A stretch of DNA of 64,000 nucleotides from positions 89,274 through 153,273 of the forward strand of contig VMEP01000001.1 in NCBI GenBank assembly GCA_007375595.1, in the 5' to 3' direction. The stretch is from Parcubacteria group bacterium LiPW_30 (lineage in GTDB: Bacteria > Patescibacteriota > Minisyncoccia > Phycocordibacterales > VMEP01). Shown one piece after another: positions 32,260 through 53,079 of the stretch (the first letter of the stretch is position 1; the number at the start of each line of letters is the position of its first letter). Below the pieces are notes generated by a model, which was not told the DNA's origin, searched no databases, and worked only from the letters and a program-made list of their open reading frames with translations. The translations under genes and the position numbers were made by a program.

Positions 32260-33717
32260 CTATGGAAATGGGTGTGGGTATGGATTTAATTTGAAATTTT
32301 CAACACCTTTATAGCGGGCGAATTGTTTTAACCTGTCACTATCAAAAGTTCCGTATTTTTCTACCAGAAACAACGGAAAGCAAAAAGGTATAAACGACTG
32401 TGCCACACGAAACCCTAATTTATCCATTGCTTTATTTTTAGGAAAATAAATAAGAGGGGTATACTCGCTCCCCAACTTAGTAAAAATATTTTCTAAAACA
32501 TTTGTTTCATCTTCTTCCCCTAAGGCGTTCGCGCTATTATTCACATAATTAAACACATCACCAGAAACAAACCACCTAAAAAGTTTAACCCACTCCTCTC
32601 CTTGCCACATTGTTATTCTTTTCTCTCTATCGATATCACTTATAAATGGGGTAAAATTACCAACCTCAACCTCTGCTTGATCCCTATCAAGATTAGCGAC
32701 ACATTGCTCGGCTTCTTCTAGCGCTTTTCTGACTGCAGAATGCAAATCAACACCAGCACCACCGGATACAGCAAAAGATTTTTTATTTAAATTATTCTTT
32801 CCAACGACGACACACGCTGAAGGGATACCTATGTTTGTTGTTGTTTCTAAAACATAAGTATCAACACCAATACTCTTAAAATCTTTTACGTACAAAAACA
32901 AATCCTCGGGTAATGATTCATTTATGATAACCTTTGGCGCAATTTGCGTTAACCAATGCACCAAAAAAGAATCTCTCTCTACGTATTCCAATATTGAATT
33001 TTTAATAACATCCTCCTTGGAAAAACCGCCAGCCGAACCGCTGGTGGTTGGATTCATGGTTATTATATTTTTTTTGCGCCTCCATGAAGTAAGACTTCTT
33101 GGTATCAAAGCAACTTCGTTGGTTAAAAAATTAAACCCCTTAACCCATTCTATCGCCTGATCATCATCTACTCTCAACTCCTTAAACAGCTCTCTTTGTT
33201 GTGGTAAAAATCTATGATATACAGGCGGGTAAAAAATATTTTTATATTTTATTTTTAATTCATTAAAAGAGCCCACAATAAAATCGTTATTTTCATCATA
33301 AAGCCCTGAGACAGCTCTTTCTATTAATTCCCCTATTGCCTTGGAGAGAGCCATGTCGCTATTCTTGTGGTGCCCAGTACTTTTTACTAAAAATTCTTCT
33401 CCGTCTAAAAGGCGCGTGGTATATATATTTATATTCCAATAAGAAGCAGTGTTCATTTTGCTTACCGCAGACAACATTTTGTTTCTATTCAAGAAATTAA
33501 TAATTATATCGTATGCGGGGCTATGGTCGTGAGGATATTTAATATAAACATCCTTAAGCCATGAAAACTTTAAAAATAAAGACAATAGAAAAATATGAAA
33601 TCTATCGCCAACACCAAGCGGTAATTTCCACGGTCCATTTTTTTGCATTTGGCGAATATCGTCAACGTAATCTTTCGCTAAAATATATCCAGGTGAATTA
33701 AATAAATTGTTTTCCAT
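32260..33717 (-). CDS. YcaO-domain protein (azoline-forming cyclodehydratase / backbone-amide activating enzyme family); second Met (MENNLF) taken as start
   Basis: YcaO ATP-binding signature GHHKNSDMALSKAIGELIERA; TSGSAGG motif; Pro-rich C-terminus NPYPHPFP characteristic of TOMM cyclodehydratases. Confidence 0.75.
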   Translation of the reverse strand: MENNLFNSPGYILAKDYVDDIRQMQKNGPWKLPLGVGDRFHIFLLSLFLKFSWLKDVYIKYPHDHSPAYDIIINFLNRNKMLSAVSKMNTASYWNINIYTTRLLDGEEFLVKSTGHHKNSDMALSKAIGELIERAVSGLYDENNDFIVGSFNELKIKYKNIFYPPVYHRFLPQQRELFKELRVDDDQAIEWVKGFNFLTNEVALIPRSLTSWRRKKNIITMNPTTSGSAGGFSKEDVIKNSILEYVERDSFLVHWLTQIAPKVIINESLPEDLFLYVKDFKSIGVDTYVLETTTNIGIPSACVVVGKNNLNKKSFAVSGGAGVDLHSAVRKALEEAEQCVANLDRDQAEVEVGNFTPFISDIDREKRITMWQGEEWVKLFRWFVSGDVFNYVNNSANALGEEDETNVLENIFTKLGSEYTPLIYFPKNKAMDKLGFRVAQSFIPFCFPLFLVEKYGTFDSDRLKQFARYKGVENFKLNPYPHPFP

Positions 33718-33721
33718 AAAA

Positions 33722-34453
33722 CTAAAAAGAAATCGTATAAACCAAACTCTCACTACTACCATCTAATTTAAGTAGACCCTCTACCCTTATATCACTGGAC
33801 GACCCATTTGGGATAAAAGTTAAACCATTCTCAACCCCAGACAACAATATATTCTGCCCAATATGCCCTGCTTCTAATAAAATATAACGATAACCCCGAC
33901 TTCCGTATTTACGTGTTGCACGATCAAAAACACTAGCTAGGCAAATCATTCCAAAACCGCCAACCGCCCATTTATCACTTTGATAGGAAAGTATATCGTC
34001 AGAAGAAAAACTTCTTCGCTCAACCAACTCAAGACTATGAGTTTGAAGTTCGTAATGATATACGCCAGATTCTAATTCTTCTATATTTTTAAACAAAATT
34101 AAATATAACTCGACTGAATACCTTGCTCCACCAGAAGGTGCTGTTCTATGAATTGTTCCGTCTTTTCTTTTTATTTCTCCGCAAGCACACTTTAATATTT
34201 TTGATATTTTCTCTAAAGTAACAAAATTGTCTGGTAACGATTTGCGGTCGGACGATCTTTTTTGTAAAAGATTAAATAATTCAGTATTAAAATTATCACT
34301 AAGTTTTATCGGGTCAAAAAATGGAATTTTCTTATACTCTGTGGTTTTCCAACTTATCGGCCACTTTGTTATATCAGCAGGGATTTTTATTAAACCACCC
34401 TCTGTTTTATCTTTAGTTGACCTGTGAAAAAATTTATATAAAAACGGTCTCAT
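33722..34453 (-). CDS. SagB-type (McbC-like) FMN-dependent dehydrogenase, nitroreductase superfamily
   Basis: 243 aa; nitroreductase RRSxR-like KRSSDRK and SagB signature …RTAPSGGARYSVELYLIL…; 4 bp upstream of the ycaO start. Confidence 0.7.
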   Translation of the reverse strand: MRPFLYKFFHRSTKDKTEGGLIKIPADITKWPISWKTTEYKKIPFFDPIKLSDNFNTELFNLLQKRSSDRKSLPDNFVTLEKISKILKCACGEIKRKDGTIHRTAPSGGARYSVELYLILFKNIEELESGVYHYELQTHSLELVERRSFSSDDILSYQSDKWAVGGFGMICLASVFDRATRKYGSRGYRYILLEAGHIGQNILLSGVENGLTFIPNGSSSDIRVEGLLKLDGSSESLVYTISF

Positions 34454-38578: not shown

Positions 38579-38597
38579 TCGTTGTAAAATTCACACA

Positions 38598-40250
38598 ATG
38601 CCAAACGAAACAGAAACCGGAAAACTAAAAATAAAGGAAATCATAGAAAAAGAGGTTTTTGTAACAAAAGACAAAGAAAGAATTGTCGACCAAAATGGAG
38701 TAGACAATAGCTGGCTCTTTGATTTTAGGCGTGTTTTTTTAAGAGCAGATATCCTTGATACGGTAAGCGAATTATTTTGGGAAAAAATAAAAAATGAATA
38801 CCCTTTCCAAATAGGTGGCGTTGAAGTTGCCTCTATCCCCCTTATTACCTCTTTTGTTTTGAAAACTAAAGAAAAAGGCAAAATATCAAATGGTTTTTTT
38901 ATACGTAAATCACGTAAAAAAAGTGGTTTACTAAAAATGATTGAGGGAGAAATATCTAACGAAAAAATCATTTTGGTTGACGACATCTTAAATACCGGGA
39001 AAAGTTTTATTAGACAAGTTGAGGTTATTGAGGCGCTTGGCAAAAAAGTTAGTGCGGTATTTGTTGTCTTAAGATTTAGAGATTTACAATATTATGAATA
39101 TTTTAACGAACGTGGAATAAAAATTATCTCTCTTTTTGAGATTAATGATTTCAAGGACACACTAAAAATAGAAAATCTTATTAAATACGAAGAAAGACAA
39201 ACACCGATGCCATTTGAAACAGAGTGGTATTTCAAGAGCGAAAATCCAGACTACTTTAAGGTCATTCCAAAATCTCTACCAGCAATAGATAATGAAAAAA
39301 TTTATTTCGGTGGAGATAATGGAACTTTCTGGGCGTTAAATCAATCAAACGGAAACATAGCATGGAAATATAAAATTCTGTTTGGCGACAAAACAAAAAA
39401 AGTTTTTTCTTCGCCGATCGTCGACAATAATACTGTTTACTTTGGCGCCAACGACGGAAATTTTTATGCACTAGATTCAGAAAATGGAAAACGTAAATGG
39501 GTATTCATGGAAGCAGATTGGGTGGCCTCCTCTCCATGCATATCAAAAAGTTTAAATAGTATCTTTGTTGGACTAGAGTTTGGATTATGGGGAAAGCAAG
39601 GATGTCTTGTAGCCCTAGATTTAAATACAGGTAAAAAGAAGTGGGAATTTTCAATGTCTCAAATATCTTACTCATCACCCGCCTATTCTACGGAATCGAA
39701 CATAGTTGTTTGTGGTAATAATAATTATTCTGTTTATGGATTAGATGCAAAAACAGGAAAATTGGTCTGGGAATTTAAGACAGATGGTGAAGTAAAAGAA
39801 TCTTTCGCCTTTGACGAAAAACGTGGGTTAGTAGTTTTTGGTTCATTTGATTCGTATGTATATATTTTGGAAGCAAAAACAGGAAAACTTGTTCATAAAA
39901 CAAAGACAAATGAGGCAATATATTCTACTCCGTTGGTCCATGATGATTTTGTATACGTAGCTTCGCTTGATAAAAATCTATATTGCATTGATTTAAAAAA
40001 TGGCGCAATTGTATGGAGTTTTGCGACAAATGGCAGAATTTTTTCTTCTCCTGAAATAATTAACGACAAGATATATATTGGCTCAAATGATGGAAGACTA
40101 TATGAACTTGATAAAAAGACAGGAGAGAACACCGCTCTTTTCCAAGCAACTGAGCGGATAACAAACAAGGTCGTTTATAGTAAAAAAACCGATAGAATAT
40201 TTCTAACAACTTTTGCCAATGAGATTTATTGTTTAAAAAAGAATCTCTAA
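38598..40250 (+). CDS. fusion protein: type I phosphoribosyltransferase domain + PQQ-repeat beta-propeller
   Basis: 550 aa; PRTase PRPP-binding motif KIILVDDILNTGKSF; ≥7 PQQ-like repeats (…YALD..NGK..W…, …YGLDAKTGKLVWEF…). Confidence 0.6.
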   Translation: MPNETETGKLKIKEIIEKEVFVTKDKERIVDQNGVDNSWLFDFRRVFLRADILDTVSELFWEKIKNEYPFQIGGVEVASIPLITSFVLKTKEKGKISNGFFIRKSRKKSGLLKMIEGEISNEKIILVDDILNTGKSFIRQVEVIEALGKKVSAVFVVLRFRDLQYYEYFNERGIKIISLFEINDFKDTLKIENLIKYEERQTPMPFETEWYFKSENPDYFKVIPKSLPAIDNEKIYFGGDNGTFWALNQSNGNIAWKYKILFGDKTKKVFSSPIVDNNTVYFGANDGNFYALDSENGKRKWVFMEADWVASSPCISKSLNSIFVGLEFGLWGKQGCLVALDLNTGKKKWEFSMSQISYSSPAYSTESNIVVCGNNNYSVYGLDAKTGKLVWEFKTDGEVKESFAFDEKRGLVVFGSFDSYVYILEAKTGKLVHKTKTNEAIYSTPLVHDDFVYVASLDKNLYCIDLKNGAIVWSFATNGRIFSSPEIINDKIYIGSNDGRLYELDKKTGENTALFQATERITNKVVYSKKTDRIFLTTFANEIYCLKKNL

Positions 40251-43524: not shown

Positions 43525-44115
43525 TTATAGATGAGTCTCTTTAAGAGCTTTGTTAATTTCCTTAAACAACTCACTTTTTACCGACAGAGTGTCTTTAATC
43601 TTTCCCTCATTAACCTCCCCCAAAAACACTTGAGCTAGCCTATCGTTTTCTCCCCAATAACCAAGGTGGTTTAAAATGCGAGCCGCCATTATCCCTTCAA
43701 CCAAAAGAAGATCTTCAAAGCTGATATCTTTTGTTTTTATGAATTCCATAAACTTATTAACCTCTTCAAACAAAGGAGCGTTGCGTTCCTCTCCGTGTAA
43801 AAGCCGACGCGCGAGCGAAAACACCCTCGCAAGAACTTTCATTTTTGTTGTTCCGTATTCATTCAGTAAAATTTGTTTATCGCCACCAAAAACATCCACC
43901 ACCCGCCACATATTTTTTCCAAAAACCAAATCTATTTTACAAACAGAAAAGTCTTGCAATAAATATCGCAATTTTGCCTTACTAAGCCTTACACCTTGAG
44001 CGGTAGCGAAAATCAAACCAAAATCTTTTGTTAGAAGATAAAACATACGGTTTGCTTCTCCTAAGTTCACACCACCCAAGACGATACTCTCTGTTGTGTA
44101 TCGATGGTACGACAT
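43525..44115 (-). CDS. recO: DNA repair protein RecO-like
   Basis: 196 aa; N-terminal OB-fold pattern (…ESIVLGGVNLGEANRMFYLLTKDFGLIFATAQG…) typical of short RecO. Confidence 0.55.
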   Translation of the reverse strand: MSYHRYTTESIVLGGVNLGEANRMFYLLTKDFGLIFATAQGVRLSKAKLRYLLQDFSVCKIDLVFGKNMWRVVDVFGGDKQILLNEYGTTKMKVLARVFSLARRLLHGEERNAPLFEEVNKFMEFIKTKDISFEDLLLVEGIMAARILNHLGYWGENDRLAQVFLGEVNEGKIKDTLSVKSELFKEINKALKETHL

Positions 44116-44116
44116 A

Positions 44117-47100
44117 CTAAATAATCAGTTTTAAAACAAAAGATATGTCATCAAAAGAAACTTCTTCTCCGATAACAACATCAGAAAAGTATATCCCTTT
44201 AATACTCACGGCTTGAGAAATTTCTGCCTGCCATTTTTCTACAAAACTTTTTCCGTTCTCGTTTGTTGAAATACTAAGTGAGACAATATCTTTAGGGTTT
44301 AATTTTTCTTTCTTTCTTAAGTCTTGGACTGCGCGAATGAATTCACGGACCTGTCCTTCTTCTTTTAACTCGGGGGTTATTGTGACATCAAACAACACAG
44401 ACCCTTTTTCAAGAGAAGCGTTGTGTGTAATTTTTTTCACGTTTACTTCCTCCTTCACCAGCTCTTCAAAAAATTCACCATCTTGCTCGGATACTTCTAA
44501 CAAAGAGAGTGGTTGGCGAACCTTAATCCCGTGAACAGCGCGCGCGGCAAGGGCTTGTTCAACTATTCTTCTAGTATTCAACATTTCCCCAATTAAATCT
44601 TTGTTTGACCTATTTATCTTCGGCCATTTCTCAAGATGAACACTTTCTTTATCTTTTTCAGTTTTAATTTTTTGATACAAATCTTCCGCAACAAAAGGCA
44701 TGAATGGCGCAAGAATCTTAGAGAGTTCTTTCAAAACAAATAATGTTGTTTCAAGTCCTGCTTTTTTATCTTCTACATTTTCGTCCCTAAACCATCCTTC
44801 GGATGGTCGGGCGTTCAAACCATTTGAGTTTGAATTAGCCTTAAAACGTTCTCGCGAACGGCGAATGTACCAAGTCGATAAATCTTCAATAAAATCCCCG
44901 ATTGGTCTTGTTGCCTTATCAATCTCATATTTATCCATACCATCCGACACTGCTTCCTTAAGTTCGTTTAATCTCGCGATAATCCACTTATCCAAAACAT
45001 TTTTACTTTCATCTTTAGCTTCTACTTTTTCAGCATACAGCGCGTAAAAAGAATAAACATTCTCGAGGCGCACAACAATTTTTCTGTATACATCAGAAAC
45101 CGAAGCTTCAGACAAACTCAAATCCTCGGCCCGCATAATTGGAGACGAGAGTAAATAATATCGAAGTGAATCTGCTCCGTATTTTTCAATAACCTTAATT
45201 GGATCAGGGTAATTCTTTAAGCGCTTTGATATTTTTTTGCCGTCTTCGGCCATCACCATCCCGTTAACAATAACGTTTTTATATGGAGCCTTCCCAAAAA
45301 GAGCCGTGCTCAAAATCAAAAGCGTATAAAACCAACCACGCGTTTGATCTAACCCTTCCGCGATAAAATCTGCAGGGAAATTATTTTTAAATTCTTTTTC
45401 GTTCTCAAAAGGATAGTGGAATTGCGCAAATGGCATTGACCCTGATTCAAACCAACAATCAAACACTTCCAAAACACGTGTCCTTTCTCCCCCGCATTCA
45501 CAATTTAGTTTTACATCATCAATATATGGACGATGAAAATCAAGGTTTCCGTCTTTATTGCGAGGGATTGATTCGAAAATCATTTTTTCAAACTCCGCAT
45601 TACTTAAGAAATCGTCCCCTCTCTCTTTTTTCATCTTTACTGCACTTTCCACTGAAAGCCCTAATGCCATAGTAAAAAGCAACCACGCCGTGTATTCATG
45701 TGTAACAATAAGAACATTTTTCCCTTTATGCTCTTTTTCAATATTTGAAACAGCTTCAAAAACCCTTTTCTTTAAGTCAGCTAAATTCTCCCCGTTTGGA
45801 GCCCTCTTTGTAAATTTTTCTTCTAAAGAAGAGAAGTAGCCGTGATATTCCTCGTTGGTCTTTCCATTAAAATCACCAACATTTATTTCAGCCAGTCGTG
45901 GATCAAAGATAACACCAGAATTTTGTAGACCAAGTTCTTCGGCAAGAATAGACGCTGTTTGTCTTGTGCGCATAAGTGGCGAGGAAACAATGAGGTCAAT
46001 TTTTTCTTTTTTTAATTTCTGCGCGCTTTCCTTAACTTGCTCTCTCCCTTTTTCAGTTAGGTTGTCTATGTCTGTCTCTTTTGTTTTTGGAGTTCTTGTT
46101 ACATTACTTTCTGCTTGCCCATGTCTTATTACAAAATAATTATTAGAAGACGCTTTTGCCAATTTTTTAATATCAGAAAGCGAACCAACAACAAACGGTT
46201 TTTCGCATTTATTACATTTCCAAACAGGAATCGGCGCTCCCCAAAAACGAGCTCGAGAAACTGCCCAGTCGCGAGCGCCTTCAAGCCACTTACCAAAACG
46301 GTTAGTACCGATTGATTCTGGAACCCAATGTATCTTTTTATTTTCTTCAACGAGTTTATCTCTAAATTTACTAACCTCAACAAACCAAGAACTTGAAGCA
46401 TAATTTAAAAGTGGCGTCTCACATCGCCAACAAAGCGGATATGAGTGAACTATCTTTTCTTTAGAGAAGAGTGTTCCTTTTTGCGCAAGATATTTAATTA
46501 TTTCTATATCCGCCGATTGAGTATCTCCTTTTTGTTTAACATATTTACCAGCGAAATCTCTTACCTCGGGTTTAAATTGTCCACTCATTGAAACGTGTTG
46601 AACAAAAGGGAGTTTTTCTTTGATTCCAAGTTCCATGTCTTCTGCACCAAAAGCCGGAGCTTCATGAGCAATACCAGTACCGCTTTCCGCCGTCACAAAA
46701 TCGGCATGATAAACCTTCCAGCCATTCTCGTGGTTCTTTATTGTTTTATCGTTTAGATAATAATCAAAAACCGGAATATAAGCTTTACCAACTAACTCAG
46801 AGCCTTTGAATTCTTTTTCTATTTTATATGGAGTATTAAAAACAAATTCTAATCTTTCTTTTGCAAGAACGTATTTTACTCCCTCCGTCTCAACCTTCAC
46901 ATAATCAATATCTTTATTCACCGCAATCGCGACGTTCCCTGGCAATGTCCAAGGAGTTGTTGTCCAAGCTAAAAGGTAAGTTCCTGGCTCATCGGCGAGT
47001 TCAAATTTTGCCGTCACCGAAATGTCAGTCAGATCGGTATAACCTTCCGCAACCTCTGATTGCGCAAGTGGTGTCTCGCAACGTGGACAAACATACATAA

Positions 47101-47623
47101 TTTTATGTCCTTCGTAGACAAGGCCTTTTTCATGAAGAGTTTTAAATGCCCACCAAATAGATTCTGTGTATGTCGCATCCATTGTTTTATAGGCATGCTC
47201 CATATCAACAAAACGTCCTAATCTTGGAACAACTTCTTTCCAATTTGAATCAAAACGAAGAACCGCTTTTTTTGCCGACTCGTTAAACTTATCAACTCCA
47301 TACTCTTCAATATCTTTTTTATGTCCAAGATTTAACTCTTGTTCAATTAAGTTTTCTATCGGAAGACCATGACAATCCCAACCCCACTGTCTGCGTACAA
47401 AATTACCACGCATCGTTTGGTAACGTGGAATAGCGTCTTTTATTGTCCCGGCTAAAATATGTCCGTAGTGTGGCTCCCCTGTTGCGAAGGGTGGTCCATC
47501 GTAAAATACGAATTTATCATCCGCTTTCTGTTCTAGCGTTTTCTCAAAAATTTTATTTTCTCTCCAGAATTTAAGTATCCTTTTTTCATTCAGAGAAACC
47601 TGTGTATCTTTTTGTTCTTCCAT
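44117..47623 (-). CDS. ileS: isoleucyl-tRNA synthetase carrying an inserted histidine-phosphatase (PGM/RHG-family) domain
   Basis: 1168 aa; HIGH (PHYGHILAG), KMSKS (KISKRLKN), CP1 editing region; ~195-aa insert (aa ~494-690) with RHG motif FVIRHGQAESN…SSPLMRTRQTA…IVTHEYT. Confidence 0.9.
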   Translation of the reverse strand: MEEQKDTQVSLNEKRILKFWRENKIFEKTLEQKADDKFVFYDGPPFATGEPHYGHILAGTIKDAIPRYQTMRGNFVRRQWGWDCHGLPIENLIEQELNLGHKKDIEEYGVDKFNESAKKAVLRFDSNWKEVVPRLGRFVDMEHAYKTMDATYTESIWWAFKTLHEKGLVYEGHKIMYVCPRCETPLAQSEVAEGYTDLTDISVTAKFELADEPGTYLLAWTTTPWTLPGNVAIAVNKDIDYVKVETEGVKYVLAKERLEFVFNTPYKIEKEFKGSELVGKAYIPVFDYYLNDKTIKNHENGWKVYHADFVTAESGTGIAHEAPAFGAEDMELGIKEKLPFVQHVSMSGQFKPEVRDFAGKYVKQKGDTQSADIEIIKYLAQKGTLFSKEKIVHSYPLCWRCETPLLNYASSSWFVEVSKFRDKLVEENKKIHWVPESIGTNRFGKWLEGARDWAVSRARFWGAPIPVWKCNKCEKPFVVGSLSDIKKLAKASSNNYFVIRHGQAESNVTRTPKTKETDIDNLTEKGREQVKESAQKLKKEKIDLIVSSPLMRTRQTASILAEELGLQNSGVIFDPRLAEINVGDFNGKTNEEYHGYFSSLEEKFTKRAPNGENLADLKKRVFEAVSNIEKEHKGKNVLIVTHEYTAWLLFTMALGLSVESAVKMKKERGDDFLSNAEFEKMIFESIPRNKDGNLDFHRPYIDDVKLNCECGGERTRVLEVFDCWFESGSMPFAQFHYPFENEKEFKNNFPADFIAEGLDQTRGWFYTLLILSTALFGKAPYKNVIVNGMVMAEDGKKISKRLKNYPDPIKVIEKYGADSLRYYLLSSPIMRAEDLSLSEASVSDVYRKIVVRLENVYSFYALYAEKVEAKDESKNVLDKWIIARLNELKEAVSDGMDKYEIDKATRPIGDFIEDLSTWYIRRSRERFKANSNSNGLNARPSEGWFRDENVEDKKAGLETTLFVLKELSKILAPFMPFVAEDLYQKIKTEKDKESVHLEKWPKINRSNKDLIGEMLNTRRIVEQALAARAVHGIKVRQPLSLLEVSEQDGEFFEELVKEEVNVKKITHNASLEKGSVLFDVTITPELKEEGQVREFIRAVQDLRKKEKLNPKDIVSLSISTNENGKSFVEKWQAEISQAVSIKGIYFSDVVIGEEVSFDDISFVLKLII

Positions 47624-47642: not shown

Positions 47643-49217
47643 TTACATTTTCTCTGGCGCAGAGATACCTAAAAGCGACAGTGTTTTCGCTAAAATTATT
47701 CTGGTCGACAAAACAAGCTCTAGAGCCCCAACGTTGTAATTATCCTCCTCAATAACTCGCGTGTCGCGGTAAAACTGTGAAAATTGGGAGGCAAGCTCAT
47801 AAGCATAAGTGTTCAAACGGTTGACCTGACAATCCTCTGTTGATAATTCAACAATTTCTGGAAACTGTAGGAGCTTAACAGCAAGGTCTCTTCCAGATTT
47901 ATTTTTCAAAATTTCATCAAGTTTAATTCCGTTAGGAGAAAGTGCTTTAGTATTTGCGATTATCGATGACATGCGGGCATGAGCATACTGCACATAAAAA
48001 ACAGGATTCTTGTCTGAATGCTCTTTAGCTAAAGCAACATCAAACTCCATATGGGTATTAAGCGCGCGTTCATTATAAAACCAACGCACCACATCAAGAC
48101 CAATTTCTTCTACCAAATCTTCAAGTAATACAACATTACCTGCGCGCTTCGACATTTTTGAAACTTCACCGTTTTCTTTAAGCGAAACGAGTTGGGTTAT
48201 GAAAACCTTAAACTCTCCTTCCCAACCAAGCATTTTTTTAACAGCCGTCATTCGTTTAACATGTCCGTGATGATCTGCTCCCCAAACATTAATCACTTCC
48301 CCATAACCACGCGAGAATTTATCTGAGTGATACGTAATATCTGAAAGAAAATAAGAAAATGACCCGTCGCTTCTTAAAACAACTCTGTCTTCGTCGTCAC
48401 CATATTCTGTTGTCTTTGCCCACCACGCTCCCTCTTTTTCATAAACAAGATTTTTCTCCTTGAGCTCATCAAACATTTTTTGATTAGAACCACTCGCTCT
48501 TAACTTCCCGTCTTCTGAATACCATTCATCAAAACGAACTAAAAGTTTTTCTTCAATAAAATCTCGGTTATCTCTTTGTATTAAAGTCGCTAGTTTAAAT
48601 CCGGCATCGGCTTCGCTCATTTGCGAAAAATCGTTTTGCTCTATAAGAGCGGATGTCATCTCTCCTTTATATTGTTCCCCTGTCCCAAGCGCTAATTTAC
48701 CAAGCTCTTTAATTTGATTGCTCTCGCGGGAATCATTCACATAATATTCACGTGTCACATTTCCTCCTGCAAAAGAAAAAATGTTCGCTAAAATATCTCC
48801 GTAAAAAGCTCCACGACCATGACCTAAATGCAAAGCGCCAGTTGGGTTTGCTGAAATAAATTCAATATTTATTTTTTTACCTTTTATAAAATCAAAACCT
48901 TTTTCAGACTCTTTTACTGTTTTATTTAGTTCACTTAAAACAGCTTCGGAAGATAAAGTGAAATTTATAAACCCAGGTCCGGCAATATTCGTCTCTGAAA
49001 CTTCATCTATAAATTCTTTATCTTTTTTAAGCTCGTCTATAACCAACCCTGCAATATCTTTTGGGTTTTTATCCGAAATCTTAACGACCATCGCAACATT
49101 AGTAGTGTAATCACCAAAACGATTATCAGCAGAAATATTAAAAGAAACTTCCCTTAATTCCGGGAAAATATCCTTGAGAACTTTATCTAATTTTTCTCTC
49201 AAAAAGTGAACCACCAT
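47643..49217 (-). CDS. argS: arginyl-tRNA synthetase
   Basis: 524 aa; …FISANPTGALHLGHGRGAFYGD… HIGH region; MSKR motif. Confidence 0.9.
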   Translation of the reverse strand: MVVHFLREKLDKVLKDIFPELREVSFNISADNRFGDYTTNVAMVVKISDKNPKDIAGLVIDELKKDKEFIDEVSETNIAGPGFINFTLSSEAVLSELNKTVKESEKGFDFIKGKKINIEFISANPTGALHLGHGRGAFYGDILANIFSFAGGNVTREYYVNDSRESNQIKELGKLALGTGEQYKGEMTSALIEQNDFSQMSEADAGFKLATLIQRDNRDFIEEKLLVRFDEWYSEDGKLRASGSNQKMFDELKEKNLVYEKEGAWWAKTTEYGDDEDRVVLRSDGSFSYFLSDITYHSDKFSRGYGEVINVWGADHHGHVKRMTAVKKMLGWEGEFKVFITQLVSLKENGEVSKMSKRAGNVVLLEDLVEEIGLDVVRWFYNERALNTHMEFDVALAKEHSDKNPVFYVQYAHARMSSIIANTKALSPNGIKLDEILKNKSGRDLAVKLLQFPEIVELSTEDCQVNRLNTYAYELASQFSQFYRDTRVIEEDNYNVGALELVLSTRIILAKTLSLLGISAPEKM

Positions 49218-49275: not shown

Positions 49276-49701
49276 TTACTTTCCAGAACTACCAAAACCC
49301 TTGCCGCCTCTGTCTGTTTCGCTCAATTCTGAGACTTCAACAAATTCTACTTGTTCAATTTTCTGAATTATCATCTGGGCGACCTTCTGCCCCTTTTCAA
49401 ACTTATATGCTCTGTTGCTTAAATTAACTATTCCAACTTTAACCTCTCCGCGATACCCAGCATCTATAACTCCGCCCAACGTTTTAATTCCATTTTTTAT
49501 AGCAATACCACTTTTATCCCAAATAAGTCCAGCGTATCCGTCTGGAATTTCAAGTGCAATTCCAGTTGGCACTTCTTTCCATTCACCCGAAGCAACCTCT
49601 ATTTCTTCTCGTGAAAGTAGATCAAAAGCCGCATCTCCTTTATATGCGTAAACTGGAACCGGTAAATTTTTATCTAATCTTTTTATTTTTATTTGCATCA
49701 A
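49276..49701 (-). CDS. dut: dUTP diphosphatase
   Basis: 141 aa; dUTPase motifs (…AAFDL…, …GLIWDKSGIAIKNGI…, …DRGGKGFGSSG). Confidence 0.85.
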   Translation of the reverse strand: MMQIKIKRLDKNLPVPVYAYKGDAAFDLLSREEIEVASGEWKEVPTGIALEIPDGYAGLIWDKSGIAIKNGIKTLGGVIDAGYRGEVKVGIVNLSNRAYKFEKGQKVAQMIIQKIEQVEFVEVSELSETDRGGKGFGSSGK

Positions 49702-49815
49702 GATATTCTATAACTAAGCACCTCGAACAAGAAATGCTAGATTGACAGCAACGTCCTAAAAAGATAGTTTTGTGGTAGTAAGCTCCTCGTTAAACAAACA
49801 ACCGAAAGGAACAAC

Positions 49816-50748
49816 GTGAAATATACCTCAGCTGAAAAACCGCCAGTTGTGGCCTACAAGCCATACCGAGACCGGAAGCCAGACTATCAATTCCGGGACC
49901 TTGCAACCAGCATCATGGAATACGGTGAAATTTCCCACCCACCACAAGGAGAAGAAGCAAAACGCTTGAGTGGAGTGCAGCTCCGCTATCAGATGGAAAA
50001 CGGATTTCCCCTCATGACTGAAAGAAATCTGACCCTTGCGCTTGGGGGGTCGAACGGTGAAATAATCGGAATGACCCACGGCGAACGCACCCTCAACGGC
50101 CTCATGAAATATGGGTGCCCGGAAGTATTCTGGAAAAATTGGGTTACCCCGGAAAAATGCGCCATTTTTGGACTCCCCCCAGGAGATCTTGGTGACGGTT
50201 CGTATGGCCCTCAGTTCGGGAAACCGAAATGCGAAGGTGGTGAATTCAGTCAAATCGAGGCAGCCCTTGCGCTTGCAAAGGCTTTCCCCGATACCAGAAC
50301 CATTCGGATAACAACCTGGCGCTTAGTGGAGCTGCTACTGAATGCCGATCCAAAAAAACGGCGGACGGTGGTTGCTCCGTGTCACGGTGATTTCACAGTC
50401 GTAATCAACCGGGAAAGAAAGACGCTTAAGATCATTCATCGACAGCGCTCTGCTGACCTTCTCGTCGGATGGACAGGCAACGTCACTCAATATGCCTGGA
50501 TGGGTATGGTGTTTGCACACCTCCTTGGTTACACAATGACCGAGCTTGTGCACTACATTGAAGACGCCCATATTTACAAGCGTCAATATGAATCTTTCCG
50601 CGAACTGTTCGCAAACCAAACCAAGCCGTTCCCGACGGTTACCATTGACGAAACTGTCACTGACTACTTCAGTTTTCGTCGCGAACATCTCTTCTTGGGC
50701 AATGACTACGATTGCGGGCCGAAAATGATCATTCCAACCCCCATCTAA
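49816..50748 (+). CDS. thyA: thymidylate synthase family enzyme (ThyA-like, divergent; dUMP-directed by active-site Asn)
   Basis: 310 aa; ThyA core: …ENGFPLMTER…, catalytic VAPCHGDF, …HRQRSADLLVGWTGNVTQYAWM…, …EDAHIYKRQ…; GC ~50%. Confidence 0.7.
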   Translation: MKYTSAEKPPVVAYKPYRDRKPDYQFRDLATSIMEYGEISHPPQGEEAKRLSGVQLRYQMENGFPLMTERNLTLALGGSNGEIIGMTHGERTLNGLMKYGCPEVFWKNWVTPEKCAIFGLPPGDLGDGSYGPQFGKPKCEGGEFSQIEAALALAKAFPDTRTIRITTWRLVELLLNADPKKRRTVVAPCHGDFTVVINRERKTLKIIHRQRSADLLVGWTGNVTQYAWMGMVFAHLLGYTMTELVHYIEDAHIYKRQYESFRELFANQTKPFPTVTIDETVTDYFSFRREHLFLGNDYDCGPKMIIPTPI

Positions 50749-50856
50749 ACGCTTTTCCCTTTCACAAAAATCGCCATTCGTGGCGATTTTATTTTTTGAC
50801 AAAAATTTTATCCCGACATATAAATAACACTAGTAAGAAACTAAGGAGACCTTTTT

Positions 50857-51327
50857 ATGAACAAACCACAAGTAAACATTGCACACGCCGTAACTGAAGA
50901 TTACCGCAAAACTCTAGAGCAAATTATCCGCGACGGAGTATGCCCTTTTTGCGTGGACTTCTGTCAGGGAAACAAGCCGAGGTATCACCCCAACCCAATC
51001 ATCATAGAAACAGATTGGTGGGCAGTAACTAAAAACATGCGACCATACCCTGGAAGCTCACTTCATTTACTTCTGGTGTACAAGAAGCATGTTCTCTATC
51101 CGTGGGAGATAGACCAGAAAGCTTGGGATGATTTGCGAAATGTTATGAAAAAACTCGCAACAGATTATTCCCTCACGCATGGGACTCTCTTCCAGCGCTT
51201 TGGCGATACCGAGTTCACGGGAGCAAGCGTGACCCACTTCCATGGTCAGCTCATCGTCGGTACATCAAGAAACGAAGGGACCGATCCATTGGTTGTCTAT
51301 TGTGGATACAAGGTTCCTGGAAAATGA
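50857..51327 (+). CDS. HIT-superfamily (GalT/Ap4A-phosphorylase branch-like) nucleotidyl transferase/hydrolase
   Basis: 156 aa; N-terminal Cys cluster CPFCVDFC and HxHGQ-type motif VTHFHGQLIV. Confidence 0.45.
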   Translation: MNKPQVNIAHAVTEDYRKTLEQIIRDGVCPFCVDFCQGNKPRYHPNPIIIETDWWAVTKNMRPYPGSSLHLLLVYKKHVLYPWEIDQKAWDDLRNVMKKLATDYSLTHGTLFQRFGDTEFTGASVTHFHGQLIVGTSRNEGTDPLVVYCGYKVPGK

Positions 51328-51338
51328 AAAGAAACCAA

Positions 51339-51370
51339 AAAGGCGATCTTTGCAGATCGCCTTTTTTTAT
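51339..51370 (+). terminator. rho-independent terminator for the thyA-HIT transcript
   Basis: AAAGGCGATCTTTGCAGATCGCCTTTTTTT. Confidence 0.65.
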
Positions 51371-51401
51371 TTTTATAAAAAACAAAGCCCCCGTAGGGGG
51401 C

Positions 51402-52253
51402 TTAAAATGAAACACGGACAACTTTCACTTCGCGGTTTCGAAGAGCCTCACGGCCATTCAAATTAGCGTAGCCGTCTTTAAAGTACACGCTCCGAACACG
51501 TGCCTCTGCAAGCATTTGCGCGCAAGAAACACACGGAAAGACTGTTTGGTAGATATCAGCCCCACGAAGCGAGATGTTTTTTCGCGACGCCGCTGCCGTG
51601 AGTAACGCTCTTTCCGCATGCATGAAAAGAGAACACTCAATCATCTCCCCTGCCTGAAAATTACTCCGGGGATCCCCATTCGCATACTGCTGTTGAGGCG
51701 GTACGCTTTCGTTGAATGCGGCCAAACGCTTCCCATCGCGAGTAACCGCAATGGCTCCAATCTGACGCCAAAAATCAGAACTCCTTTTACTGAGTTCGTC
51801 TGCTTGGCGCAAAAATTTCCGAGCAGCCTCTGACGATGTCACGATAATGTCTTCGTCTGGAGGAAGCTTGGAAAGCGCAGCCATTCCATCCCAACGGAGG
51901 AAGAACGGGATGAAAGTAATGCGTTTGCGGCCGAAAAATCTTTTAGCCACGTAACGCGAAACATCTTCGTCCGGAAGAATAAGTCGCACATCCTTCCGCA
52001 TCGCAAGAGACCTAAGACCGACCGTGTTTACAACTGAAACTAAGTCGAGTGCCGGCGATACCAATCCTTTGGTTTGATTCAACATCATCGCCAAAAGCTT
52101 GGGTTCAACAGCTCTCATGTCACGGGCTATCCCGACAATTGCGTGTGACACACTCGGGTGAAGTAAGTGAAGTTCTTGTGCCCCACTTTCTTCAATAAAA
52201 CGCCGATACCCTTCGTGAAAAACAGGGATGTATGCAACCGCAACGGTCCTCAT
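51402..52253 (-). CDS. fusion of an N-terminal domain of unknown function with a C-terminal cytidine/deoxycytidylate deaminase zinc-binding domain
   Basis: 283 aa; C-terminal CMP/dCMP deaminase motifs …CSLFMHAERALL… and …PCVSCAQML…; start overlaps upstream gene by ATGA. Confidence 0.6.
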   Translation of the reverse strand: MRTVAVAYIPVFHEGYRRFIEESGAQELHLLHPSVSHAIVGIARDMRAVEPKLLAMMLNQTKGLVSPALDLVSVVNTVGLRSLAMRKDVRLILPDEDVSRYVAKRFFGRKRITFIPFFLRWDGMAALSKLPPDEDIIVTSSEAARKFLRQADELSKRSSDFWRQIGAIAVTRDGKRLAAFNESVPPQQQYANGDPRSNFQAGEMIECSLFMHAERALLTAAASRKNISLRGADIYQTVFPCVSCAQMLAEARVRSVYFKDGYANLNGREALRNREVKVVRVSF

Positions 52254-52945
52254 GATTTCGTGCCACTTATTCGAGACAGGAAACCTTCAATGACGCGATG
52301 AAGCTCCTCTGCAAGCTGTGACGCCCCAGTCAGAATCAAGGCGGAAAGCCGTGCCGTGGTCGAGTCATCAGACTGAGGAACCAACCACTCCAGCCGGCCA
52401 CAATGCTTCATCAGGTGGTCGATATGACTCTGATCCACATCTTTGGTCCCCTTCGACATAATGAGGACATCGGGGTGAATTTTTTCGACAAGCTCTTCCA
52501 GTCGTGCCCCCACATCGCGCACAGTCACGAGGTCAACGTGCCTGGTATGCAATAGCATCTCGACACGATCACCAAATGCATCAAACGGCCGAGCAGGTTC
52601 TCCTGGTTTTTGCTTTCGCTGCCGTGTCAATTCGTCAGAGTCGACACCAACCACGAGAAAGTCTCCCGCCGCTTTCGCTTTTTCAAGGTAACGAAAATGA
52701 CCCTTATGCGCCATATCGTATACACCCTGAGTCAGAACAACGACAAACCCTCCTTCCTGCAAATGCCTGACCACGCGAACCAACTCCTCGTGGTCTTGCA
52801 CAAATCGTGTTTCCTGATTCCTTTGGCGGAAATCAAAAAGATTCTTGACGATTCGGGCAAACCTTGTTTTCGGTGATACTTCCATACAAACAGAACCTTC
52901 TAATGGCGTGTTCATTCTAGACTCCTCGGTAAATGGAAAGGTCAA
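52250..52945 (-). CDS. cytidylyltransferase-like nucleotidyltransferase (HldE domain II / TagD family, HxGH motif)
   Basis: 231 aa; …VVVLTQGVYDMAHKGHFRYLEKAKAAGDFLVVGVDSDELTRQRK… aligns to heptose-1-P adenylyltransferase / G3P cytidylyltransferase core. Confidence 0.6.
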   Translation of the reverse strand: MTFPFTEESRMNTPLEGSVCMEVSPKTRFARIVKNLFDFRQRNQETRFVQDHEELVRVVRHLQEGGFVVVLTQGVYDMAHKGHFRYLEKAKAAGDFLVVGVDSDELTRQRKQKPGEPARPFDAFGDRVEMLLHTRHVDLVTVRDVGARLEELVEKIHPDVLIMSKGTKDVDQSHIDHLMKHCGRLEWLVPQSDDSTTARLSALILTGASQLAEELHRVIEGFLSRISGTKS

Positions 52946-53079
52946 ACTGCGTTAATTTATATTCCTTGAGATGCCAAAAGTAAACCCCCTACAAAAAACT
53001 TACTTTACTCCACCCTATTTTCTTTGTTAGTCTAAGCAAAGAAAGTCCTTCCCATATACACAAGAAATGGAGCGTCGAA

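Follow-up and report, generated by a model that had tools for sequence, protein, structure and literature searches.

A predicted histidine phosphatase domain nested in a type-2 isoleucyl-tRNA synthetase of the Patescibacteria

Described relatives of the synthetase and of the phosphatase

Aminoacyl-tRNA synthetases (aaRSs) are among the best-studied enzymes, and the extra domains known in them edit, bind tRNA or moonlight in signalling. The isoleucyl-tRNA synthetase (IleRS) treated here is encoded in a 64,000-nucleotide stretch of the genome of Parcubacteria group bacterium LiPW_30 (the window), and it agrees in domain order, in its HXGH- and KMSKS-type motifs and in its CP1 editing motifs with Priestia megaterium IleRS2 (8C8U) and Thermus thermophilus IleRS (1ILE; type-2, mupirocin-resistant class). 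Like the type-2 enzymes it has a DUF5915-type C-terminal tRNA-binding domain, its CP3 binds zinc as in Thermus, and its matches to solved type-2 IleRSs are strong (phmmer E-value 1e-220, Foldseek TMt 0.78-0.85). The CP3 of Thermus IleRS bears a zinc motif, and from one IleRS to another this subdomain is variable and permissive (PMC7191050). It is at the CP3 tip that the window enzyme departs from the 8C8U type, having a putatively catalytic domain of about 200 aa where the latter has a turn of about four residues. A curated IleRS family with an extra enzymatic domain does exist (NF040702, isoleucine--tRNA ligase, N-acetyltransferase domain-containing), but it carries another enzyme at another insertion site; the window IleRS scores 308.6 bits against its cutoff of 1999, and Pfam detects no acetyltransferase domain in the window protein. 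One relative (P0163) combines a GNAT domain in CP1 with the phosphatase in CP3.

On the phosphatase side, PhoE/YhfR (1H2E, 1EBB), PspA (4IJ5), GpgP (4PZ9) and CobC (6E4B) resemble the insert in fold, size, small cap and catalytic set (RHG, Asn, Arg, Glu, His), at 22-30% identity and a TM of about 0.75. These are free-standing metabolic proteins, whereas the clade of the insert is tied to aminoacyl- or acyl-adenylate-forming enzymes and has cap residues of its own and a basic charge. Among the NCBIfam equivalogs the insert fell below the cutoff of every characterised phosphatase family (bits/cutoff: CobC 98.4/162.9, dPGM_arch 95.7/225, RNase H/acid phosphatase 93.4/326, PspA 76.4/350, SixA 40.5/74.5), and membership in a characterised subfamily (CobC, PspA/PSP1, dPGM, GpmB, SixA, RNase H/acid phosphatase) was rejected on that ground.

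Fusions of a branch-1 domain to a nucleic-acid or nucleotide enzyme are represented by the actinobacterial RNase H/acid phosphatase (NF005567, Rv2228c type), which is the third-best NCBIfam match of the insert although far under its cutoff, and by mycobacterial MutT1 (Nudix plus RHG). Both are end-to-end fusions to partners other than synthetases, as opposed to the nested insertion of the window IleRS. The activity of the C-terminal RHG domain of MutT1 is called unknown in PMC11784022, which thus does not support that domain as a precedent for cleavage of nucleotide phosphoanhydrides, and our literature searches found no citable precedent for cleavage of PPi or nucleotide anhydrides by a branch-1 domain. 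Nor did they turn up a description of an IleRS-histidine phosphatase fusion, a preprint on host defence and a paper on microcin C/HIT being of tangential relevance at most, and NCBIfam has no curated model for a phosphatase-bearing IleRS; the partnership of synthetase and phosphatase, and its purpose, appear not to have been described previously.

The host enzyme and its insert

A preliminary description of the window, made from the letters alone, had reported an IleRS of 1168 aa with an in-frame insert, and the ORF is indeed single and unbroken (Table 1). Its product matches P0046 (Parcubacteria bacterium LiPW_30) at 100% identity, which bears out the CPR origin implied in the preliminary description, and the base composition of the insert is the same as that of the remainder of ileS. 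An assembly chimera or frameshift is ruled out by the clean ORF, by the even composition and by the recurrence of the arrangement, which over 200 proteins and no fewer than 80 species genomes display.

Table 1. Features of the ileS locus in window coordinates, with residue numbers of the encoded IleRS
Feature	Residues	Coordinates	Strand	Basis
recO, directly downstream of ileS		43525..44115	-	Pfam RecO_N
ileS, 1168-aa type-2 (eukaryote/archaeal-like) IleRS with nested phosphatase		44117..47623	-	single unbroken ORF, TIGR00392, Pfam
IleRS C-terminal part: rest of CP3, second Rossmann half, SC fold, anticodon-binding domain, DUF5915 C-terminal domain	691-1168	44120..45553	-	alignment to 8c8u residues 483-869 and beyond, Pfam
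KISKR (KMSKS-type motif)	797-801	45221..45235	-	
Second half of CP3 zinc knuckle, CEC	C708, C710	45494..45502	-	motif position
Nested insert: histidine phosphatase domain and short linkers	490-690	45554..46156	-	alignment to 8c8u
C-side linker with motif found only in nested copies (consensus PFPHN)	F683, P687, R/H688, N689	45557..45577	-	sequence comparison; pLDDT about 86-90 in full-length model
Pfam His_Phos_1 (PF00300) match	497-664	45632..46135	-	132.7 bits, E 1.7e-38
Distal catalytic His, in THEY	H642	45698..45700	-	aligned to PhoE/PspA
Catalytic acid, in LAEINVG	E579	45887..45889	-	aligns to Glu of PhoE/PspA
Second catalytic Arg, first Arg of MRTRQTA	R552	45968..45970	-	aligned to PhoE/PspA
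Catalytic RHG with nucleophile His	R500, H501, G502	46118..46126	-	aligns to RHG of PhoE 1h2e, PspA 4ij5
IleRS N-terminal part: first Rossmann half, CP core, CP1 editing domain, CP2, first half of CP3	1-489	46157..47623	-	alignment to 8c8u residues 13-478
First half of CP3 zinc knuckle, CNKC	C470, C473	46205..46216	-	motif position
HYGH (HXGH motif)	52-55	47459..47470	-	
argS (ArgRS, 524 aa), directly upstream of ileS		47643..49217	-	Pfam

The host is a regular member of its family. It scores 870.3 bits against the 621.4 cutoff of the ileS equivalog TIGR00392, Pfam places tRNA-synt_1, Anticodon_1 and DUF5915 (53.6 bits) on it, and by phmmer its closest PDB matches are IleRS2 8c8u and eukaryotic IleRS (E 1e-220), vs. 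1e-89 for type 1. Alignment A1 shows no variation in the CP1 editing motifs (W220-TTTPWTLPGN and G315/G317/H320/D329), and the peptides WGAPIPVWKC (aa 461-470), RPYIDDVKLNCECGG (aa 698-712) and VFDCWFESGS (aa 720-729) flank the insert on the two sides. The zinc ligands of CP3 are kept whether or not the insert is present: the C470/C473 pair in 205 of the 207 insert-bearing (fused) IleRSs and in 36 of 36 split ones, C708 and C710 in 204 and 201 of the 207, respectively, and both in all 36. We infer that the window enzyme is the housekeeping IleRS, serving aminoacylation of tRNA-Ile.

Alignment with 8c8u set query residues 489 and 691 on chain residues 478 and 483, so that aa 490-690 take the place of about four residues, namely, the turn at the tip of the CP3 zinc knuckle; an insert had earlier been put at 45556-46144, within a few codons of the boundaries in Table 1. 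Across the 207 homologues the insert measures 177-224 aa (median 200), and it diverges faster than the core (mean pairwise identity 42% vs. 55%). It had been described as no standard IleRS feature, with a normal CP or zinc-binding region as the way in which this might prove wrong; the 8c8u alignment and a Foldseek search of the PDB rule that region out, since no solved synthetase covers the insert and the solved type-2 IleRSs have only the short turn. An intein or mobile insertion was also rejected: Pfam finds no Hint or endonuclease domain in the whole protein, and the junctions (...LAKASSNNYF... and ...NKDGNLDFHRPY...) lack splice-junction residues, that is, Cys/Ser at the N-junction and His-Asn plus Cys/Ser/Thr at the C-junction.

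Assignment of the insert to the histidine phosphatases holds up well. His_Phos_1 matches it with 132.7 bits in context and 137.6 bits when the insert is taken alone, either one passing the gathering cutoff of 21.7 sixfold, and this match divides that of tRNA-synt_1 in two. The three peptides on which the preliminary description relied are all present (FVIRHGQAESN at aa 497-507, SSPLMRTRQTA at aa 547-557 and VLIVTHEYT at aa 637-645), and its choice of the RHG, the second Arg and the His as catalytic agrees with the alignment to PhoE and PspA; its Glu (E643) is not the catalytic one, the acid being E579, and N507 also belongs to the set. Conservation is nearly complete: R500, H501 and R552 in 207 of 207 homologues, H642 in 206 and G502 in 202, with Glu at position 579 in 184 and Asp in the other 23. 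To judge by these counts the catalytic residues of the insert are intact and under purifying selection, and we predict a catalytically competent branch-1 histidine phosphatase, whose phospho-His chemistry would follow from the intact residues.

Structure models, which had been proposed as a check on whether the insert is a domain of its own, gave a confident alpha/beta fold. The AF2 model of the insert alone (pLDDT 91.4, pTM 0.88) has an alpha/beta/alpha architecture with a cap subdomain and was matched by Foldseek to 4ij6, 1h2e, 6s2q and 4pz9 (probability 1.00, TM about 0.75). In the full-length model (pLDDT 87.4, pTM 0.80) the linkers too are confident. The insert is thus predicted, on these models, to fold as an independent domain that leaves the synthetase body undisturbed.

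That the linkers are short and conserved and the model is confident suggests that the domain keeps a fixed pose on CP3, its neighbour in the sequence being the WFESGS active-site loop, and such a pose would suit a regulatory or sensor module, one that binds a phosphorylated metabolite, or whose H501 is transiently phosphorylated in the manner of dPGM, and that so tunes IleRS to the energy or nutrient state; it would equally suit a module that is mainly structural or serves dimerisation. Members of the dPGM superfamily form phospho-His intermediates and many are dimers, which fits. We nonetheless regard such a module as highly improbable, because every copy, even in multi-copy proteins, keeps all of its catalytic residues, the acid/base Glu (or Asp) among them, which is more than ligand binding needs; no evidence for a ligand was found; and the free-standing forms described below would need an allosteric route that depends on docking.

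Nested, split and multi-copy arrangements

The survey of CPR synthetases that had been recommended showed the insertion to be clade-wide. It is borne by 207 related IleRSs, PF00300 is found in all of the 120 best IleRS relatives, and insert-bearing IleRSs occur in at least 80 species-representative genomes. Certain IleRSs of the same clade lack the insert, and for these the closest free-standing homologue of the insert is the product of the gene directly upstream of ileS. The phosphatase gene lay between argS and ileS for five of the five closest free-standing homologues, and approached from the other side, all three insert-less IleRS relatives that we picked without reference to the phosphatase had the phosphatase gene upstream. 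Of 80 metagenomic loci sampled without bias, 50 were split, 23 nested and one had a single intervening ORF, the remaining six being uninformative; 13 of the 50 split loci had no argS upstream and still had ileS downstream. The free phosphatase is a very basic protein of about 190 aa, whose gene often overlaps that of the insert-less synthetase. Linkage of the phosphatase to ileS, fused or adjacent, is near-obligate.

Gene order is generally conserved in the clade and recO always adjoins ileS too, so that adjacency alone is weak evidence; this conserved synteny of recO shows that the fused and split loci are orthologous. By an NJ tree and a parsimony count, both approximate, the insert-less IleRSs make up about nine clades scattered among fused ones, to whose nearest fused members they have 76-80% core identity, and the histories of phosphatase and IleRS core are incongruent. 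Incongruence of this kind implies that one form or the other is always kept when a locus changes state, and together with the scatter of the split forms it rules out a single fusion event. The alternation of fused and split states amounts to a natural Rosetta-stone pair, and the split and fused pairs constitute a ready experimental system.

Nested and free forms share the cap residues E602, K606 and G611, which outgroups lack. They differ in their linkers, the PFPHN motif being kept in 87-98% of nested copies and in none of the free-standing ones, and in charge: free partner phosphatases have a pI of 9.7 and +6.6 charges per 100 aa, nested copies +1.0 and other family members -2.2. The IleRS core has a pI of 5.8.

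The phosphatase is found at other positions and in other hosts as well. It occurs at three IleRS sites, corresponding to aa ~490, ~745 and ~865-876 of the window enzyme, and some IleRSs bear two or three copies, all with their catalytic residues. The two sites other than the CP3 tip (B and C) appear remote from the active site by secondary-structure reasoning only, which argues against tight substrate channelling. A ValRS (P0171) carries four copies and another (P0284) one, at the site equivalent to CP3. The signature residues of the phosphatase clade are also present in a fusion to TsaC (threonylcarbamoyl-adenylate synthase, P0255), of which one cluster is known, from a contig of 3.7 kb. Of the non-tandem fusions in the 150 best representatives, essentially all joined the phosphatase to IleRS, ValRS or TsaC, and none joined it to an unrelated protein.

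This partner choice bears on the possibility of a hitchhiker, i.e. an unrelated housekeeping phosphatase of the argS-ileS operon (for phosphoglycerate, phosphoserine or a sugar phosphate, say) that was captured in a permissive surface loop and is kept for an essential function of its own. Metabolic phosphatases (PspA, PhoE, GpgP, CobC) score best among the characterised relatives, the synteny of the clade is rigid, CP3 is tolerant of variation (as cited above), and the several nesting sites, apparently with no fixed geometry, fit mere tethering. A hitchhiker would hardly be so selective, however, as partners are highly non-random; nesting a domain in an essential protein puts its folding at risk, and this has happened independently at three sites and with three host enzymes; the association with ileS outlasts both the loss of argS adjacency and the switches of state by replacement; and the free form has gained a strong positive charge that is complementary to the acidic synthetase. 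We consider capture of this sort unlikely.

Candidate functions

The split and nested linkage to ileS, the multi-copy sites and the ValRS and TsaC hosts together point to an accessory phosphatase that is dedicated to adenylate-forming enzymes of the tRNA pathway. For the window we lean towards reading the insert as the dedicated accessory phosphatase of the type-2 IleRS in a large clade of Patescibacteria (Parcubacteria/Paceibacteria), nested here and split in sister lineages, where docking without a covalent link is probable. In the nested form the phosphatase sits at the end of the CP3 zinc-knuckle hairpin, joined to it by short, conserved linkers, and in the split form the basic free protein would probably dock on the acidic synthetase; in either case it would work together with the adenylate-forming active site.

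As to what such an accessory phosphatase might do, we can offer a guess, itself doubtful: that its target is a ligand or product of the activation reaction, of the adenine-nucleotide type, from which it would strip a terminal phosphate. Candidate substrates would be AMP, PPi or a phosphorylated ATP analogue, with local clearance of a product or competitive inhibitor as the possible benefit in organisms of minimal nucleotide metabolism. The literature that we searched on CPR/Parcubacteria contained no statement on the presence or absence of a PPase. A broader proposal is that the class Ia synthetases of Patescibacteria are synthetase-phosphatase holoenzymes, in which the nested or docked site carries out a chemical step linked to the activation of the amino acid, to editing or to the handling of the tRNA. 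It might, for example, destroy a nucleotide product or inhibitor on the spot or process the 3' end of the tRNA; we give this proposal a fair hearing but rather less than an even chance.

A substrate of larger size would be either the tRNA, with a 2'/3'-phosphate or pyrophosphate to be removed, ahead of charging, from a CCA end that is damaged or has been modified by a toxin, or the synthetase itself, e.g. a serine phosphate placed on the KMSKS loop by a HipA-type kinase. HipA targets the KMSKS serine of GltX and TrpS, and the corresponding S799 is kept in 202 of the 207 homologues. Next to its acidic relatives the clade stands out as markedly basic, the insertion points lie along the tRNA-binding body (CP3 and the junction of SC fold and anticodon domain), and branch-1 members that act on proteins are known: SixA is reported to act on Ndk (PMC12934123), and sensor kinases are reported as targets of MutT1 (PMC12407098). 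Set against this, TsaC, another host of the clade, has neither tRNA binding nor a KMSKS loop, and the basic charge fades on nesting, a better fit to docking on an acidic synthetase than to RNA binding. Moreover, the nearest relatives in sequence and structure are all small-molecule phosphatases with a cap subdomain, repair of tRNA-Ile alone would not rescue translation, and the loci showed neither a kinase nor a toxin as a partner. We hold a macromolecular substrate to be quite unlikely.

Should the preferred reading of a dedicated accessory phosphatase be right, an intact phosphatase nested in a catalytic core would be a new kind of accessory chemistry for aaRSs; the holoenzyme proposal, if true, would further mean a form of accessory catalysis new to any aminoacyl-tRNA synthetase and common to the t6A enzyme TsaC. 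With a large share of the Parcubacteria/Paceibacteria concerned, the arrangement may show how ultra-small symbionts with minimal nucleotide metabolism handle the products or inhibitors of activation. On the practical side, the insert is usable as a lineage marker, and it impairs automated naming, many of the proteins that bear it being labelled only 'class I tRNA ligase family protein'.

The phosphatase domain and its insertion point

The ileS ORF of the window is uninterrupted and keeps the same base composition along the whole gene. Pfam recognizes in its 1168-aa product tRNA-synt_1 (as a split match), Anticodon_1, DUF5915 and His_Phos_1, the last falling at aa 497-664, between both halves of the catalytic-domain match, with 132.7 bits (E 1.7e-38; the gathering score is 21.7); on its own the insert scores 137.6 bits. 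The preliminary description had placed a histidine phosphatase inside IleRS, and this is borne out, each of the peptides that it quoted being found where stated. The top match among solved structures was Priestia megaterium IleRS2 (8c8u, E 1e-220; type-1 enzymes, 1e-89), marking the synthetase by homology as type 2. In the alignment to 8c8u, query residues 489 and 691 pair with chain residues 478 and 483, so that the ~200 residues of aa 490-690 stand for a turn of ~4 residues; nor does any solved synthetase span the insert in a Foldseek search with the full-length model, in keeping with the earlier view that the module is not a standard IleRS feature. The replaced turn is flanked by CNKC (aa 470-473) and CEC (aa 708-710); their four Cys are kept in 201-205 of 207 fused relatives and in each of the 36 that lack the insert. 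Fifteen residues further downstream comes the WFESGS active-site segment, whose Trp is the counterpart of the one in the wall of the Ile pocket of Thermus IleRS. The region of the turn is CP3, the subdomain that links CP2 with the Rossmann fold's second half and bears a zinc motif in Thermus IleRS (Candida IleRS structure paper, PMC7191050).

The synthetase part looks intact, with an NCBIfam ileS equivalog score of 870 bits (cutoff 621) and with HYGH, KISKR and the CP1 editing motifs all found. A short Asn/Ser/Gly-rich segment within the anticodon-binding domain (…NSNSNGLNARPSEGWFRDE…) is the sole internal stretch modelled as disordered (pLDDT <50), and falls in a gap of the 8c8u alignment.

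The insert looks like a competent phosphatase, as had been proposed from its motifs: in the alignment R500-H501-G502, N507, R552, E579 and H642 fall on the catalytic residues of PhoE (1h2e) and the phosphoserine phosphatase PspA (4ij5). Of these, R500, H501 and R552 never vary among 207 fused homologues, H642 is kept in 206, position 579 is always Glu or Asp, and position 507 is Asn or Gln in 198, despite faster divergence of the insert than of the synthetase core (mean pairwise identity 42% vs 55%). A sensor or structural role for the domain seems highly improbable. AlphaFold2 predicts an independently folding domain (insert alone, pLDDT 91.4, pTM 0.88; full-length IleRS, 87.4 and 0.80, the insert and its two linkers reaching pLDDT ~86-96). 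The full-length model matches type-2 IleRS structures (TMt 0.78-0.85), and the Foldseek neighbours of the insert are the small-molecule phosphomonoesterases PspA, PhoE, GpgP, CobC and a riboflavin-pathway phosphatase (TM ~0.75, identity 22-30%). Against the characterised NCBIfam equivalogs the insert stayed below each curated cutoff, which places it inside the histidine phosphatase superfamily and outside its known subfamilies.

Nested and split forms

When relatives were surveyed for the same insertion, PF00300 was present in all 120 best IleRS matches (54-81% identity), from Yonath-, Lloyd-, Pace- and Minisyncoccota-type lineages; many bear no fuller name than 'class I tRNA ligase family protein' or 'hypothetical protein'. 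Scanning species-representative genomes gave 505 related stretches, of which the best 80 all span the junction-crossing query and have in common the gene order argS, ileS, recO, DUF11 protein. A 285-aa ORF from a 34.9-kb contig (P0021) encodes part of an IleRS that has the phosphatase at the identical site and lacks the CxxC half of the knuckle (…PVWQNADGSE…); since it was called as a short ORF of its own, it may represent a split or degraded ileS in a lineage further removed.

Searched alone, the insert finds as its closest relatives free-standing proteins of ~188 aa (41-48% identity). All five of those looked up have their gene flanked by argS and ileS, and ileS follows the phosphatase gene directly in every such locus having downstream sequence. 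One of these loci, L081, reads argS, phosphatase, insert-less ileS (977 aa), recO: the window synteny with the domain excised and moved upstream. Conversely, three insert-less IleRSs picked irrespective of the phosphatase all had a His_Phos_1 gene upstream, at one locus (L091) overlapping ileS by 4 nt. Metagenomes were sampled without bias by taking the 80 loci closest to the free-standing clade: 50 had a free phosphatase with the ileS start directly downstream, usually after 9-30 nt, and 23 were nested; in five the sequence was too short, one had a single ORF between, and one ran off the contig end. Since 13 of the 50 free loci lack upstream argS yet retain ileS downstream, the linkage is to ileS. 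Taken alone this adjacency is modest evidence, because gene order is generally rigid across this clade, recO being just as constant a neighbour. That an unrelated housekeeping phosphatase hitchhikes at ileS is, in our estimate, unlikely. At two split loci (L090 and L132) an extra ORF, matching no Pfam family in our look-up, separates the two genes; at a third (L092) a probable toxin-antitoxin insertion replaces argS upstream of the pair.

The L081 synthetase has fused IleRSs as its nearest relatives (73-76% identity in both halves; other insert-less enzymes, at most 61%), while its free phosphatase shares 42% identity with the inserts of those cores and 73-79% with other free copies. From this mismatch the locus seems to switch state by replacement or recombination, always keeping one form of the phosphatase. 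The nearest-neighbour identities are the robust part of this evidence; in a neighbour-joining tree of 243 cores, which is approximate, the 36 insert-less enzymes fall in ~9 clades among the 207 fused, requiring ~7 parsimony changes. The window enzyme has canonical HXGH, as do 124 of the 243; ~119 have a swapped GXHH-type motif, including all 36 insert-less IleRSs. GXHH has been tied to mupirocin hyper-resistance in IleRS2 (10.1101/2023.01.31.526100).

Copies also occur at other sites. Two relatives (P0237 and the 1419-aa P0292) carry one at CP3 and a second where the SC fold meets the anticodon-binding domain (window aa ~865-876), and another (P0288) adds to these a copy at aa ~745, immediately ahead of the fourth Rossmann strand. 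All copies retain the Arg-His dyad, second Arg, Glu and distal His, two having RHA for RHG. Further hosts are a ValRS with four copies (P0171; valS 411 bits vs ileS 199), a fragment of ValRS in which the domain occupies the equivalent of the CP3 site (P0284), and the threonylcarbamoyl-adenylate synthase TsaC, fused to a domain with the clade's signature residues (P0255; TIGR00057 146.8 bits vs 123.2). Of the best 150 representatives, ~90 show IleRS motifs and 49 have the size of free-standing copies; the remainder are multi-copy, ValRS or TsaC architectures or tandem phosphatases, with no fusion to an unrelated partner among them. ArgRS and MetRS of the window are of ordinary size and without phosphatase.

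Possible role and precedents

Free partners are strongly basic (median pI 9.7, +6.6 charges per 100 aa), nested copies near neutral (+1.0) and other family members acidic (-2.2); the IleRS core has pI 5.8. Such a gradient is expected if the free protein docks on an acidic synthetase, a need that eases after covalent attachment. E602, K606 and G611 of the cap region, with N494/Y496, are common to nested and free forms and missing in outgroups, which suggests one shared substrate; a PFPHN-like linker motif is confined to nested copies.

IleRS, ValRS and TsaC all form adenylates, converting ATP and an amino acid to acyl-AMP and PPi, with AMP released later. A macromolecular substrate, as in tRNA-end repair or KMSKS dephosphorylation, is weakened by the TsaC host, an enzyme that does not bind tRNA and lacks a KMSKS loop, and is judged quite improbable. 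The chemistry common to the three hosts favours instead, tentatively, removal of the terminal phosphate from an adenine-nucleotide-type ligand or product. The identity of both parts, their conservation, linkage, recurrence, host range and charge pattern are observed; beyond this we infer that the free phosphatase would dock physically on the synthetase, be coupled to the activation reaction and act on a substrate of that class. On balance we lean towards a dedicated, functionally coupled accessory phosphatase of IleRS.

Neither type-2 IleRS nor His_Phos_1 is new alone; what our literature searches did not turn up is their combination, for which NCBIfam has no curated model. NCBIfam does hold one for IleRS with a GNAT domain (NF040702, ileS_w_GNAT), and a 1325-aa relative (P0163) has a GNAT acetyltransferase in CP1 (aa 285-415) plus the CP3 phosphatase; Patescibacteria IleRS thus seems a hotspot for nested enzymatic domains. 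For fusion of a branch-1 histidine phosphatase to an enzyme of nucleic acids or nucleotides, the closest precedents come from actinobacteria (RNase H/acid phosphatase, NF005567) and mycobacteria (MutT1); what the RHG domain does in MutT1 is itself unsettled (PMC11784022). The partnership described here is near-obligate, nested or split, multi-site and multi-copy, reaching ValRS and TsaC, and its biochemical role is directly testable.

Other genes

The high-GC patch beside dut may be a horizontally acquired pyrimidine-metabolism island; its genes, and other features of the window and of split loci, are tabulated.

Coordinates of features in the window and in split loci
Feature	Location	Coordinates	Strand	Remark
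ileS	window	44117..47623	-	
Phosphatase insert	window	45554..46156	-	aa 490-690
HYGH motif	window	47459-47470		
Asn/Ser/Gly-rich segment	window	44783-44833		IleRS aa 931-947
High-GC patch	window	49750-52950		0.45-0.52 vs ~0.38 around
dut	window	49276..49701	-	adjoins high-GC patch
Thymidylate synthase ThyA	window	49816..50748	+	in high-GC patch
156-aa ORF	window	50857..51327	+	in high-GC patch; no Pfam match
dCMP/cytidine-deaminase-like protein	window	51402..52253	-	in high-GC patch
Cytidylyltransferase-like protein	window	52250..52945	-	in high-GC patch
1134-aa ORF	window	10368-13772	-	no Pfam match at E <= 1e-5
YcaO-family protein	window	32260..33762	-	
550-aa protein	window	38598-40250	+	phosphoribosyltransferase-like N-terminus, PQQ/BamB-type beta-propeller
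150-aa ORF	window	38591..39043	-	overlaps the 550-aa protein
Extra ORF	L090	4031-5014		327 aa
Extra ORF	L132	3858-4586		242 aa
AbiEii-like nucleotidyltransferase toxin (weak Pfam match) and DUF6922	L092	63-976		upstream of phosphatase-ileS pair
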